The notes beneath the pieces were generated by a model. That model searched no databases, was not told where the DNA came from, and worked only from the letters and a program-made list of their open reading frames with translations. Shown one piece after another: positions 30,235 to 36,027 of a DNA stretch of 64,000 bases. The DNA comes from an uncultured Acidobacteriota bacterium (GTDB lineage Bacteria; Acidobacteriota; Vicinamibacteria; Vicinamibacterales; CAVVIG01), in contig CAWEDP010000002.1 of the NCBI GenBank assembly GCA_963807925.1, positions 1,164,034 through 1,228,033 of the forward strand, given 5' to 3'. Numbering within the stretch: position 1 is the stretch's first letter; each line of letters begins with the position of its first letter. The position numbers and the translations under genes are program-made.

Positions 30235-30286
30235 TTGGTCGGGGCGAGAGGATTTGAACCTCCGACCCCTCGGTCCCGAATCGAGT
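30235..30286 (-). repeat. Partial copy of the tRNA-Pro 3' half (att site, island-distal)
   Basis: 30235-30280 is identical to 35950-35995 (46/46 nt). One mismatch at 30281, then 5 more identical nt. Covers the anticodon loop through CCA plus 1 nt. Confidence 0.85.
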
Positions 30287-30470
30287 TGAGCCTCACCGAT
30301 TTGCAAACGATTTCGCATCTCTCCGGACTCGGGTCGCAACCGGGTAGCGGCTCGGAAGTGCCAGCGGCCCACCTTAGCCGGCCATCGCCGACATGGTGAA
30401 CGCGAGACCCGAAGACGCAACACGCGGGCCAGCTTGTTACCCCACGCTGCGCGGTGCTACTGTGATCGCT

Positions 30471-30695
30471 ATGACATTGAAGGCTCGAGTGAAGGCCGGC
30501 CGGCTGGTCGTTGACGAACCCACAGACCTGCCCGAAGGAACGGAAATCGAGCTGCTGGCTCTCGATCCCGGAGATTGGCTCGACGAGGACGATCGTGCCG
30601 CCTTGCATCGGGCTCTGAAAGAATCCGACGAAGACATCAAGGCGGGCCGTCTCATTGACGCGGACGTGATCCTTCGCGAACTTCGATCGCGTTGA
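30471..30695 (+). CDS. Antitoxin of a ParE/RelE-type TA pair
   Basis: Start at ATG 30471 (MTLKARVKAGRLVVDEPTDLPEGTEIELL...). The N-terminus looks like an AF2212/DUF104-type antitoxin. The C-terminus (DRAALHRALKESDEDIKAGRLIDADVILRELRSR) is ParD/addiction-module-like. Its stop overlaps the toxin start (TTGA). Confidence 0.6.
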   Translation: MTLKARVKAGRLVVDEPTDLPEGTEIELLALDPGDWLDEDDRAALHRALKESDEDIKAGRLIDADVILRELRSR

Positions 30696-30991
30696 AGAAC
30701 CGCCGCGTCCGCTTCACAGCCACTGCGCAGGAACACGTTCGGCGGGAGGAGGCCTGGTGGCTGGCCAATCGCGACCACCCCGACGTGTTCGCCGAGGAAC
30801 TCCAACAAGCGCTCCAGATCATCACGGCGCTTCCGGGTGCCGGAACTCTCTACAATCAGTCGTCCTCTCCCGGCGTCCGCCGCGTCTACCTCAGGAGACT
30901 CGCCGCCCATCTCTATTACACGTTCGACGACACCAGGGTGATCGTTCGCGCTCTCTGGGGCTCGCGTCGCGAACGCGGCCCGCGGATTTGA
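30692..30991 (+). CDS. RelE/ParE-family toxin
   Basis: TTG start overlaps the antitoxin stop. ...VRRVYLRRLAAHLYYTFDDTRVIVRALWGSRR is a typical ParE C-terminus. Confidence 0.7.
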   Translation: MKNRRVRFTATAQEHVRREEAWWLANRDHPDVFAEELQQALQIITALPGAGTLYNQSSSPGVRRVYLRRLAAHLYYTFDDTRVIVRALWGSRRERGPRI

Positions 30992-31108
30992 CGTTCAACG
31001 GTGTGATGACTGCGACCATGGCGGTCCGAGCATGGCCCCGCGACGGGTTCAAGCCTGACGTTCATTGTGTGGGCGGTCACCCTCAAGTAACCTTGTTCGC
31101 ATTCCCTG

Positions 31109-34100
31109 ATGTCCGACGACAAGGATGACCTTCCTTTCGGTCTCTACGAGCGGCTTGTTACAGCCGGCCTGAAGGCGCGACTCCTCCGTTTCGATTCCAA
31201 CACCGCCCGCATCGTCAAAAGGCAGATCGATCCCACCGAGGCGTACGCCACGCTGGCCCGGCACGTCGCACACGTTGTGGCGCGTGCACTCAAAGCTCTC
31301 CCTGAACATGACCGCACCGCCGCACAATCCGAGCTGACCAATCAAGTCATCGGCTGGCTTGCCGCCCATTCAGCTGACGCCACGACTCACGAAGACCTGG
31401 TTGAAATCCCGCCCGAAGAACTTCGGGCCATTCAGGCCATCGGCCACATGCCGAATGCGGATCGGGACGTGGTCGCGCCCTTGGTCGCCCTGTCCGCGTC
31501 AGACCTCCTGGTCAACGCACGCGGCGAGCCCGGCCTCGCCCACGCGCTGGCGCACGAGATTCCGTCCGCCGACTCCATCGACCTGCTGTGCGCCTTCGTG
31601 CGATGGCATGGGTTGCGGCTACTTGAGGATCAACTCGGGGCGCATTGCCGGGCGGGCAAGCGGCTACGCGTGATCACGACCGTCTTCACCGGATCGACCG
31701 AACGCAAAGCGCTCGATTGGCTGGTGGCGCGCGGCGCGCAGGTCAAGGTCTCGTACGACACTCAGTCCACCCGCCTCCATGCGAAGGCGTGGCTCTTCCG
31801 CCGCGCCACCGGCTACTCCACCGCTTACATTGGCTCGTCAAATCTGTCGAAGTCGGCGCTCGTGGACGGTGTCGAGTGGAACGTGCGTCTGTCGCAGGTG
31901 GGCTCGCCGGACATCCTCGAGAAGTTCGATGGCACGTTCGACACGTACTGGGAAAGCCCCGAATACGAGTCTTATGAACCGAAACGGGATGCCGCTCGAT
32001 TCGATCGGGCTGTCGCGCCGCAACAAGGCGAATCGCTTGAGGCGCCGCTCCTCTTCCTTGACGTCGAACCCTGGCCACATCAGCGCGAGATGCTCGAGAA
32101 GCTCGCCGTCGAGCGCGAACGGCATCACCGCTTCAAGAATCTTGTCGTTGCCGCCACAGGCACCGGCAAGACCATCGTGGCCGCGCTGGATTACAAGCGC
32201 CTGTGCGATCAGCACGGCGATCTACGCTTGTTGTTTGTCGCGCATCGACAAGAAATCCTGAAACAGAGCCTCGGCGCGTTCCGCCAGGTCCTGCGGTCCG
32301 GGGATTTCGGCGAGCTCTACGTGGACAACCATCGGCCCGAAGAGTGGCGCCACGTGTTTGCGTCCATTCAATCGCTCGCACAGGTCGATCTCGACCTGCT
32401 CGATCCGGCCGCCTTCGACGTCGTGATTGTCGACGAATTTCATCATGCGGCGGCGCCGACGTATCGACGGCTGCTCAAACATCTCTTCGACCGCGAGGAG
32501 GCCCACTCGCTTACACAGCCGCCGAGAGTCCTTCTGGGTCTTACCGCCACGCCGGAACGCACCGACGCCGACGACATCCTTCACTACTTCGACAATCACA
32601 TCGCGGTGGAAATGCGGCTCTGGGACGCGCTCGAGCGTGAGCTGCTTTGCCCGTTCCAATATTTCGGGCTGCACGACAACACCGACTTGTCGTCGGTTCG
32701 GTGGTCCCGCAAGGGCTACGACAGGGCGGAGCTCGAGCGCCTGTACACGGGAGACGATGCGCGGGTGAGACTGGTGCTGGAGCAGGTGCGGCAGAAGCAC
32801 CGCGATGTGGGGACGATGCGCGCGCTCGGGTTCTGCGTGAGCATTGCGCACGCAGAGTTCATGGCACGGCGGTTCACCGAGGCGGGGCTTCCATCGGTGG
32901 CTGTGTCCGCTGACACCGACAGCGACAAGCGAAAGGACGCTCTGGCGTCGCTGCGGACGGGGCGGGTGCGAGCCCTCTTCGCGGTGGACCTGTTCAACGA
33001 GGGTGTCGATCTCCCGGAAGTCGACACGCTGCTCCTTCTACGGCCGACGGAGAGCGCCCTGGTGTTTCTCCAGCAGCTCGGGCGCGGGCTGCGACGCCAC
33101 GAAGGAAAAGACTGCGTCACCGTACTGGACTTCATCGGCCAGTCGCATCGGCAATTCCGCTTCGACCTGCGCTATCGCGCGGTCACGGGGACCACGCGGA
33201 CCGAAGTCGAGAAACAGGTGCAGCTCGGTTTTCCATTCCTGCCTGCGGGCTGCTCGATGCAGTTGGATCGCGTCGCCACCCAGATCGTCCTCGACAATCT
33301 GAAAAGCGCTGTCCCCTCGCGTCGTCCCGCGATGGTGCGGGAATTGAAGGCGCTCGCTGAGGCCCGTTCGGCTTCCGGACGTCGCATCACGCTTGCCGAG
33401 TTCCTTCAGGAGGCAGGGCTCGACCTGGACGACGTGTACCGCTCCGGCAGTTGGTCGGGCCTGCAACGTGACGCGGGCCTCAAGGTGCCCGCTCCGGGGC
33501 CACATGAAACGCTGATCGGCGATCGGCTGGCCGGCATTCTGCACGTGGACGATCCGCTTCGGCTCGGTGCCTATGAACACCTTGCGGCATCGGCATCGGT
33601 GAGCGCGATGTCGGACGCCGACCGCCGCCTCATGACTGGCTTTCACTTCGCCGTGATCGCTTCTAACATTGCACCCGAGACACTCGCGGAGTCGGTCGCG
33701 CTTCTTCGCGCACATCCTGCCATCGTCGAAGAGCTGCGCGAGCTGCTTCCCTTGCTCGACGAGCGGTCGGAGCATCTCACCTATCCGCTCGACCTTGCCC
33801 AGCCTGCCGGATCGCCAGTCTGCGTCCCTCTGTCCGTGCACGCGCGCCACACAGTGGACGATGTGCTCACGGCGTTCGGGATAGTGGATTTCAATAAAAC
33901 CGTGTGGAAGCAGACGGGTACCATCCGAGACGAGGGGACGAACTCGGACCTGTTCTTTGTGACACTCGAGAAGTCCGAACGCGAGTATTCGCCGTCCACG
34001 CTGTACAAGGACTATGCGATTTCTCCCACGCTGTTCCATTGGGAGTCGCAGTCGACCACCACGCAGCGGTCGAAAACGGGGCAGCGCTACATTCATCACC

Positions 34101-35674: not shown

Positions 35675-35685
35675 TCCCTCTGTTG

Positions 35686-35714
35686 AGTATATGCACAGTT
35701 GTGCATACAGTCAA
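35686..35714 (-). promoter_or_regulatory. brnTA promoter with operator-like inverted repeat in the spacer
   Basis: Minus strand: TTGACT (35714->35709), 17-nt spacer, TATACT (35691->35686), then 11 nt to ATG 35674. The 8-2-8 inverted repeat TATGCACA-GT-TGTGCATA (35690-35707) fills the spacer. Confidence 0.6.
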
Positions 35715-35894
35715 CCTCACGACCGCTCCGTCGGGTAGCGTCAGGGTAGTACGGACCACTGTGTCCAACCCGATCAGTGCTGTGGCTCGAGCGGCCTGGA
35801 ACGCCCGTGATGGTGCAGACGGACCGGATTTGGACTTCAGGTCACTCGGTCAGAAACCAAGTGACCGGCACACTTAACGGAAAATCGCCGCTCG

Positions 35895-35935
35895 AAAAAG
35901 CAAAGAGGTCAGATTTCCTAGGGAATCTGACCTCT
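35895..35935 (-). terminator. Rho-independent terminator downstream of tRNA-Pro
   Basis: Perfect 12-bp stem AGAGGTCAGATT (35904-35915) / AATCTGACCTCT (35924-35935). The minus strand is followed by TTTGCTTTTTCG. Confidence 0.75.
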
Positions 35936-35950
35936 CGTCGCTTTGAAAAT

Positions 35951-36027
35951 TGGTCGGGGCGAGAGGATTTGAACCTCCGACCCCTCGGTCCCGAACCGAG
36001 TGCTCTACCAGGCTGAGCCACGCCCCG
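35951..36027 (-). tRNA. tRNA-Pro (anticodon CGG)
   Basis: 77 nt: CGGGGCG TG GCTC AGCCTGGTA GAGC A CTCGG TTCGGGA CCGAG GGGTC GGAGG TTCAAAT CCTCT CGCCCCG A CCA. Full cloverleaf, G after the anticodon, encoded CCA. Confidence 0.9.

Follow-up and report, generated by a model that had tools for sequence, protein, structure and literature searches.

We analyzed a low-GC island of 5.7 kb in a 64,000-nt stretch of DNA (hereafter the window) from a soil acidobacterium of the order Vicinamibacterales (Acidobacteriota). The island adjoins tRNA-Pro(CGG), the tRNA gene downstream of surE. We consider it probable that the island is a composite of two integrase-less units of the cis-mobilizable element (CIME) type, each inserted at the anticodon loop of the tRNA gene by a tyrosine integrase supplied in trans. 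An earlier note, made from the sequence alone, had described an integrase-less island between two copies of the tRNA 3' end. To this we add a putative fusion of two elements, arm-type repeats at both ends, a third tRNA-like copy at 35811-35880, and the SauUSI-like identity of the restriction gene. Loci of relatives and viral contigs are cited by L numbers, and other coordinates refer to the window.

The insertion site at tRNA-Pro(CGG)

The only tRNA gene found in the window is an intact tRNA-Pro(CGG), and a copy of its 3' part lies at the far end of the island. The site consists of the following features:

35951..36027, minus strand: intact tRNA-Pro(CGG) (ARAGORN; Rfam tRNA, 64.5 bits); its 3' part (35950-36001) is the core of the left attachment (att) site, attL
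35893..35936, minus strand: island-borne terminator of the regenerated tRNA, forming the first part of the tRNA-proximal (P') arm (13-bp stem at 35903-35936, T tail)
30235..30286, minus strand: attR core, formerly the 3' part of tRNA-Pro and now displaced (positions 27-77 plus 1 nt; repeat search)
30181..30226, minus strand: original chromosomal terminator of tRNA-Pro (hairpin with T tract; colinearity with L056, L050 and L064)

The repeat search aligned 30235-30286 with 35950-36001 over 52 nt at 98% identity, with one mismatch at tRNA position 32. Over 46 nt the two copies are identical, beginning at tRNA position 33, where the anticodon loop starts, and ending 1 nt past CCA. Chance cannot account for an exact repeat of this length, and no further fragment of tRNA-Pro besides 30235-30286 was found in the 64 kb. 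The earlier note had reported this repeat with its span and single mismatch, the intact tRNA, and a terminator behind each copy; the repeat search confirmed the first, ARAGORN and Rfam the second, and the stem at 35903-35936 and the hairpin with T tract at 30181-30226 the third.

In L056, the intact tRNA and what lies downstream of it are colinear with 30286 to 30092 of the window (82.6% identity over 195 nt), a stretch with the displaced fragment, its terminator and about 100 bases more; the same is true of L050 and L064. Because of this colinearity, we take 30235-30286 to be the original 3' end of the gene and the DNA from there up to the present tRNA to be inserted. The empty-site comparison that had been proposed for relatives thus has three examples, in which the intact tRNA is joined directly to the sequence found behind the displaced fragment of the window.

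Two observations had been named in advance as arguments against an insertion. One was a relative that carries the same genes here without the repeat. Formally, L039 is such a case: it has the antitoxin, ParE-like and restriction genes at this position, and local alignment did not find the distal repeat in it, nor in L005 or L070. The insertion still stands, because the genes shared with L039 reach 90.3% nucleotide identity over 3.9 kb where the alignable backbone reaches only about 78.5%, because most of the 80 related species lack those genes at the site, and because the intact tRNA of L056, L050 and L064 runs straight into the post-fragment sequence. The other argument, that the repeat is a tandem tRNA remnant common to the lineage, is disfavored, since the repeats of different species lie at different distances and enclose different cargo and so are not one inherited remnant. 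The data support the view that a tyrosine recombinase integrated the DNA site-specifically into the tRNA 3' part.

The composition of the enclosed DNA also points to a foreign origin. The GC content of 30281-35949 (5669 bases) is 62.1%, compared with 68.5 ± 1.0% in 5.7-kb windows outside (minimum 66.0%). No other 5.7 kb of the window has a GC content this low; the island lies about 6 standard deviations under the remainder. GC at third codon positions is 0.61-0.77 in island genes and 0.78-0.93 in the surrounding genes. The GC contrast noted before is therefore real and persists under a properly windowed calculation, but it is smaller than the 58% versus 73% first claimed. A second, milder dip occurs at 25000-26500 (61-65%), where a DUF6178 gene ends and an aldo-keto reductase gene lies, and no repeats or mobility genes were seen there. 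The aldo-keto reductase gene (25147-26289) had been suspected of encoding an integrase from its size and low GC; it was ruled out.

Two integrase-less units and their attachment arms

No integrase, resolvase or transposase family matched at E <= 1 in stop-to-stop segments of at least 60 aa in six frames over 29950-36030; 25 of the 29 recombinase families were among the matches listed, and the other four were all weaker than E = 0.2. The six-frame scan of the island gave no conjugation or relaxase remnants. A phmmer search with two integrases from the tRNA-Pro site found nothing in the window, where the neighboring genes and all integrase-sized open reading frames (ORFs) are housekeeping genes. 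Both the family scan and phmmer thus confirm that the island lacks an integrase, as first noted.

No integrase lies beside tRNA-Pro here or in 79 of the 80 relatives' loci. When 92 ORFs downstream of tRNA-Pro in relatives were scanned as one batch, which is uninformative for rare families, at most one could be an integrase. L002 has an integrase 7 nt from tRNA-Pro. Its gene ends in a tandem GATGTTAACA repeat (L002 10849-10905, translated LTSVLTS), where the arm-type sites probably overlap the 3' end of the integrase coding sequence. L016 has at the site an integrase like that of the viral contig L102 (7e-85), accompanied by GTTAGGCT arm repeats, which resemble the ones in the integrase-less units of L035; this integrase is apparently shortened, and attR is absent.

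The island reads as a fusion of two integrase-less elements. Element A, proximal to the tRNA, comprises BrnTA and a frameshifted YecA-like gene. Element B, the distal one (30235 to about 34360), comprises a SauUSI-like restriction gene and a ParE-like pair. Their junction, the arms and a tRNA-like element are as follows:

34295..34375, minus strand: A/B junction, a remnant of the P' arm of B itself with one surviving GCTACCC at 34356-34362 (alignment A5 with the complete B of L231 and L235)
35732..35750, minus strand: tandem arm-type repeats ACTACCC-N5-GCTACCC of the P' arm (position, orientation and recurrence in relatives)
35811..35880, minus strand: degenerate tRNA-like element within the P' arm; its 11-bp hairpin at 35840-35866 is perfectly paired (repeat family D1, of which it is the third member, at 62% identity to the reference; fold)
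30287..30392, minus strand: tRNA-distal (P) arm with arm-type repeats CGCTACCC-GG-TTGCGACCC at about 30331-30349 (CGCTACCC at 30342-30349)

The 80 bases past the stop of the restriction gene align to the P' arm of B and then run into the YecA-like gene, and homology of the window's B to L231 and L232 extends to 34360. Since the arm remnant leads directly into the YecA-like gene, A and B are joined without an internal tRNA half.

B also occurs as a separate unit in other metagenome contigs. In L231, L232 and L233, it stands alone as a 4.2-kb unit, 84% identical to that of the window, between a 48-nt tRNA repeat and the intact tRNA, beside a surE that is only 71.6% identical. The unit is also present in L235, and the tRNA repeats that bound stand-alone B measure 48-49 nt. 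In L235, B adjoins the tRNA, and a P' arm of the window-proximal type (terminator, short hairpin, GCTACCC pair) lies beyond its repeat; the order of the elements is the reverse of that in the window. All these stand-alone copies (L231/L232/L233 and L235) show the same junction of P arm and antitoxin gene as the window, with no room for an integrase. In L234, the P' arm of B abuts a partial tRNA and not the intact gene; therefore another unit lies between B and the gene. L039 lacks the distal att site, its homology ending at 30375, inside the P arm. Across hosts, B is 84-90% identical at the nucleotide level where surE is 72-81% identical. The greater conservation of B than of the host backbone suggests mobilization in trans. 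Because the B copies share their layout, sit in different array positions and belong to hosts more diverged than B, the integrase-less form is apparently what spread, and this would require an integrase supplied in trans.

The arms recur at many of these loci. The P arms of L231 (CGCTACCCTGTCGCTACCCG) and L235 hold the window's motif at an equal distance from the core, 50-70 nt before the distal core in all three. On the proximal side, 15 copies from 12 species share roughly 230 bases behind the tRNA or behind each partial tRNA copy (alignment A2), in the order 'TTTCCTAAGAAAA', tRNA-like hairpin, 'CGTTCGAGATTT' and a tandem pair of 7-9-mers. This pair is of the GCTACCC type in the window, L003, L005, L009, L039 and L079, always at +169 to +222 from the tRNA end and in one orientation, and is GTTAGGCT in L035 and L016. 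The density of GCTACCC there is 0.46 per kb versus 0.059 per kb overall, an eight-fold enrichment. A terminator of the island type is also found behind the tRNA 3' half in L003, L010 and the distal unit of L235.

A comparable arrangement occurs in two temperate phages (IMGVR_UViG_3300020020_000099 and IMGVR_UViG_3300011423_000019; L102/L229 and L230). The 38-kb viral contig L102/L229 encodes a 471-aa tyrosine integrase (PF00589), followed by tandem GGAACGGATGC repeats and a 45-nt core equal to the window repeat, and then by 'TAAGAAAA', a hairpin, the same tandem repeats again, and terminase and portal genes. In L230, a 93%-identical phage, both sets of repeats, which are tandem 11-mers, are jointly changed to GGAACGGCATC. 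Because the repeats of both arms change together between the two phages, the 11-mers are likely to be arm-type integrase sites.

By analogy, the two ends of the island look like the two halves of a phage attP. Island and phages share a 45-50-nt tRNA-Pro(CGG) core with 'TAAGAAAA' following CCA, and both have tandem repeats in the two arms; the GCTACCC-type repeats of the island have the same orientation on both. The phages differ in having integrase, terminase and portal genes, in carrying GGAACGGATGC or GGAACGGCATC instead of GCTACCC, in lacking the tRNA-like hairpin, and in placing the P' repeats at +95 rather than at +170 to +220. The tandem GCTACCC pattern had at least 120 matches in viral contigs, and a tRNA-Pro core was absent from all 86 stretches checked; these matches were attributed to chance, as was the one match of the hairpin pattern there, in a low-GC phage terminase gene.

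The element at 35811-35880 resembles tRNA-Pro from the D loop to the T loop, with an anticodon stem lengthened to 10-11 pairs. Homologous copies lie behind the tRNA or behind each partial-tRNA repeat in the 12 species, and in L231, L233, L234 and L235 as well, and the changes in their stems preserve pairing (T-A, T.G, C-G). Measured from the hairpin, and not from the real tRNA, the arm repeats lie at a phage-like distance. The hairpin is perhaps a former internal att core kept since an earlier fusion, or perhaps a functional site. It was also considered as ancestral chromosome; this was rejected for the window, where native sequence of the L056 type, without a hairpin, lies behind the displaced fragment. 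Other copies were located at L035 12527-12546, 15429-15448 and 20505-20524 and at L039 10902-10943, and some copies have a 20-25-nt insert in the loop.

Genes of the island and the surrounding locus

The island encodes the following:

35399..35674, minus strand: BrnT ribonuclease toxin of element A (PF04365, 1e-27)
35130..35480 (longest ORF; true start probably later), minus strand: BrnA antitoxin (PF14384, 2e-13)
35686..35714, minus strand: promoter-like site TTGACT-17-TATACT overlapping a palindrome upstream of brnT (consensus match only)
34404..35115, minus strand: YecA-like gene, UPF0149 plus SEC-C (PF03695, 1e-19; PF02810, 1.4e-10; two overlapping frames)
31109..34294, plus strand: SauUSI-like type IV modification-dependent restriction enzyme, 1061 aa (predicted; Pfam, PADLOC, PDB)
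30692..30991, plus strand: ParE-like toxin, 99 aa, a weak assignment (PF05016, E 0.0098, 16.9 bits, full-length coverage)
30471..30695, plus strand: putative antitoxin, 74 aa (translation)

In element A, BrnT and BrnA are encoded by adjacent genes with overlapping ORFs, as in BrnTA type II toxin-antitoxin systems. The YecA-like gene is broken by a single frameshift near 34705-34750; both of its halves match the PADLOC candidate PDC-S12, and its 5' part is 83% identical to a sequence in L003 at an equal distance from that locus's tRNA.

The 1061-aa protein of element B contains, in order, PF13091 (PLDc_2), PF04851 (ResIII), PF00271 (Helicase_C) and PF11907 (DUF3427), and matches PADLOC mREase_IV at 2.4e-267 and PDB 7CLG at 3.3e-85. 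The latter is SauUSI (PMC7913695). Like SauUSI from Staphylococcus aureus (PMC3141236, PMC7913695), it joins an N-terminal phospholipase D (PLD) nuclease, a superfamily 2 helicase and a C-terminal DUF3427 in one polypeptide. It differs in an N terminus about 110 residues longer and in being only distantly related in sequence. On this architecture, we class it as a SauUSI-like type IV restriction enzyme with a predicted specificity for modified DNA; an enzyme of this class would be expected to cleave DNA containing 5mC or 5hmC in an ATP-dependent manner. Homologues of the gene with 84-85% identity were seen beside tRNA-Arg(TCT) together with a BrnTA pair and near tRNA-Asn(GTT) (L106 1719-6229; L105 10001-14308). 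The SauUSI-like restriction gene is a recurrent cargo of tRNA-linked islands in Vicinamibacterales.

The remaining two genes are less certain. The ParE-like gene overlaps its upstream neighbor by 4 nt and is 88% identical to the L039 copy, but its score of 16.9 bits is below the Pfam cut-off of 23 bits, and no PDB or NCBIfam match was found for it or its 74-aa partner. No family match was found for the partner; a 74-aa gene is predicted at the equivalent position in L231, L232, L233 and L235. The order of putative antitoxin and then toxin gene fits a ParDE operon, with the ParE match sub-threshold. Thus, of the gene content described earlier, BrnTA, the PLD-helicase-DUF3427 protein and the frameshifted YecA/SEC-C gene hold, and the ParE assignment is weak. 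We propose that the cargo would provide defense against modified DNA and two addiction modules.

Outside the island, the order g394, major facilitator superfamily transporter gene, surE and tRNA-Pro(CGG) is widely conserved, surE being linked to the tRNA in most of the 80 Vicinamibacterales loci. The relatives of SurE belong to metagenome-assembled genomes of this order and are at best 84% identical. Among the 80 species, nearly every one has a different sequence behind tRNA-Pro, and in no relative do the left-flank genes of the window (29060-29989 and 26394-29063) follow tRNA-Pro or lie beside surE. On the plus strand, an open frame at 30008-30180 runs through the native terminator and the displaced tRNA fragment and has no family match; this may be what is left of a gene, or an ORF open by chance in GC-rich DNA.

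Partial tRNA-Pro copies take several forms at these loci. L035 carries a tandem array of three integrase-less units. A repeat-bounded unit of only 567 nt lies beside tRNA-Pro in L075 (10925-11618); it holds little beyond two att arms, as a miniature derivative of an integrative element, and a ParE fragment persists beyond this 0.57-kb unit. L078 (10971-20099) has three successive Ser/Thr kinase-PD40 genes with a partial tRNA-Pro 3' copy behind each. In L078 and L052 (14355-14433), some partial copies have a 25-35-nt GC-rich hairpin, resembling repetitive extragenic palindromes, inserted in the T arm. The closest relative, L001 (SurE 84%), carries an exact copy of tRNA-Pro positions 1-43 located 47 nt upstream of a complete, divergent tRNA-Pro(CGG) (3334-3499), which suggests a different type of event, at the 5' side of the gene.

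Proposed history and relation to known elements

In the proposed history, an integrase would recombine the attP of each element with the tRNA gene inside the anticodon loop. Each insertion would supply a new tRNA 3' half and terminator, displacing the old 3' half outward to the far end. Element B, with its P' arm, SauUSI-like gene, ParE-like pair and P arm, would have entered first. Element A, consisting of terminator, tRNA-like hairpin, P' arm, BrnTA and YecA-like gene, would have followed into the regenerated tRNA. The internal att region (the P arm of A, the internal tRNA half and most of the P' arm of B) would later have been deleted, leaving the outer attL and attR; direct arm repeats flanking the internal tRNA half would be a plausible substrate for this deletion.

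Several points weigh against this history. We infer the insertion order and the internal deletion, as well as the identity of the helper integrase and the mobility of the present copy, rather than observing them directly. No helper integrase with GCTACCC-type arm sites was found, and this genome was seen over 64 kb only. The arm-type repeats are candidate sites, identified by position, orientation and analogy, and they lie at +170 to +220 from the real tRNA end, about twice the phage distance (+95). The empty-site evidence consists of about 140 nt of homology in distant relatives; the collections hold no truly close relative with an empty site (best SurE match 84%), exact-sequence look-ups of SurE and the restriction enzyme did not lead to a source genome, and a metagenome scan with the 309-aa protein of the left flank returned only relatives of at most 65% identity, none with tRNA-Pro or surE nearby. 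One cargo gene is frameshifted, a sign that decay is under way, even though both outer att sites are intact. The integrase-less B shared among relatives could in principle reflect one old loss followed by vertical descent, with insertions and excisions of neighboring units, although the identity gradient between B and the backbone disfavors this.

The earlier note had left the choice between a decayed, immobilized island and one mobilized in trans. The comparative data favor mobilization in trans, at least in the element's past, and decay is partly seen in the frameshift. It is possible, though we think it unlikely, that the whole island is the immobile remnant of one integrase-bearing island or prophage, reduced by deletions in place and retained with the aid of its toxin-antitoxin pairs. 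Decay is common at this site, as illustrated by the broken YecA-like gene, by L039 with the same cargo and no distal att site, and by L016 with its shortened integrase and missing attR; moreover, the phage integrase adjoins the P arm, where a deletion could take it out. However, the integrase-less B, with the same P arm-antitoxin junction, is bounded by repeats in several genomes, occupies different array positions and is conserved above the backbone. The island also holds pieces of two different P' arms and so is not one element, and both outer att sites are intact with an unmutated 46-nt core.

The tandem integrase-less arrays, with three units in L035, and the conserved hairpin behind each tRNA half, with its pairing preserved and the arm repeats at a phage-like distance from it, would also fit a dedicated cassette system, in which a resident recombinase captures hairpin-bearing units serially at tRNA-Pro through the folded hairpin, as in integrons. 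We consider this improbable: the exact repeats place the crossover in the anticodon loop of the real tRNA and not in the hairpin, the arms resemble those of ordinary double-stranded phage attP sites, the repeat-bounded units of L075 and L052 lack the hairpin, and 79 of 80 loci have no resident integrase beside the tRNA. Of the features of an integron-type array, neither a resident integrase beside the tRNA here nor recombination through the hairpin was found. Very improbable, in our view, is the absence of any site-specific insertion, with a hotspot shuffled by homologous recombination between conserved flanks and a repeat left as an old tRNA remnant of the lineage. Such shuffling would fit a downstream region that differs in nearly all 80 species and left-flank genes that never adjoin surE in relatives. 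Against it, repeat distances and cargo vary by species, the repeat has its start precisely at the anticodon loop, the cores lie between arm-type repeats, and the native downstream sequence stays with the displaced fragment.

The island has parallels among known classes of elements. Williams reportedly classified tRNA integration sublocations in 2002, and pSAM2 is an element that integrates in tRNA-Pro. Here, the exact identity from position 33 to CCA plus 1 nt corresponds to the anticodon-loop sublocation. Sublocations of this kind are summarized in bioRxiv 10.1101/2020.11.02.365908. Anticodon-loop tRNA islands and prophages share with our island the span of the repeat from anticodon loop to CCA, a new 3' half provided by the element, and arm repeats on both sides. 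They carry their own integrase beside the att site, the mark of tRNA-targeting integrase islands, whereas this island has none. Integrative mobile elements exploiting Xer (IMEX), such as the CTX phage and the gonococcal island, use XerCD at dif. Like our island, they encode no recombinase and depend on one from elsewhere; unlike it, they target dif with the host XerCD, rather than a tRNA gene with arm sites of the phage-integrase type. In the tandem islands of Dehalococcoides (PMC3146451), site-specific insertion has likewise recurred at the 3' end of a small RNA gene, ssrA.

CIMEs and their accretion have been defined previously (PMC5704250). The proposed mechanism matches this definition, because the integrase-less form would have spread with an integrase acting in trans. 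The island has attL and attR bounds from site-specific integration (46-nt core, arm repeats in both outer arms), and integrase, excisionase and transfer genes are absent within the segments of at least 60 aa. As to derivation from an integrative and conjugative element (ICE) or an integrative and mobilizable element, the scan gave no conjugation or relaxase remnants, and the att architecture is phage-like. The island differs from the Streptococcus CIMEs of the ICESt1/ICESt3 family in its host phylum, in phage-like rather than ICE-like att sites, and in the absence of conjugation remnants; here, moreover, two units appear fused through loss of the internal att site, and mobilization is putative.

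The island is therefore a CIME-like composite at a tRNA hotspot, of a kind that is already known, fairly ordinary and unsurprising to a specialist, and it leaves current concepts of genomic islands unchanged. A bolder proposal, which we hold to be rather doubtful, is that a family of integrase-less units, each with a P' arm bearing a functional tRNA-derived hairpin, variable cargo and a P arm, circulates in soil Vicinamibacterales and is stacked by a phage-type integrase in trans. If true, it would represent a tRNA-anchored, cassette-like exchange system for defense genes, with the hairpin a functional site and not a scar. What the island itself offers is an example, from a poorly studied soil phylum, of how small defense and addiction modules that encode no recombinase may spread and become stacked at a single tRNA gene. 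It provides concrete candidate cis-sites in the core, the arm repeats and the hairpin, and it draws attention to the tRNA-Pro(CGG) gene behind surE as a hotspot in which to look for defense genes in Vicinamibacterales.

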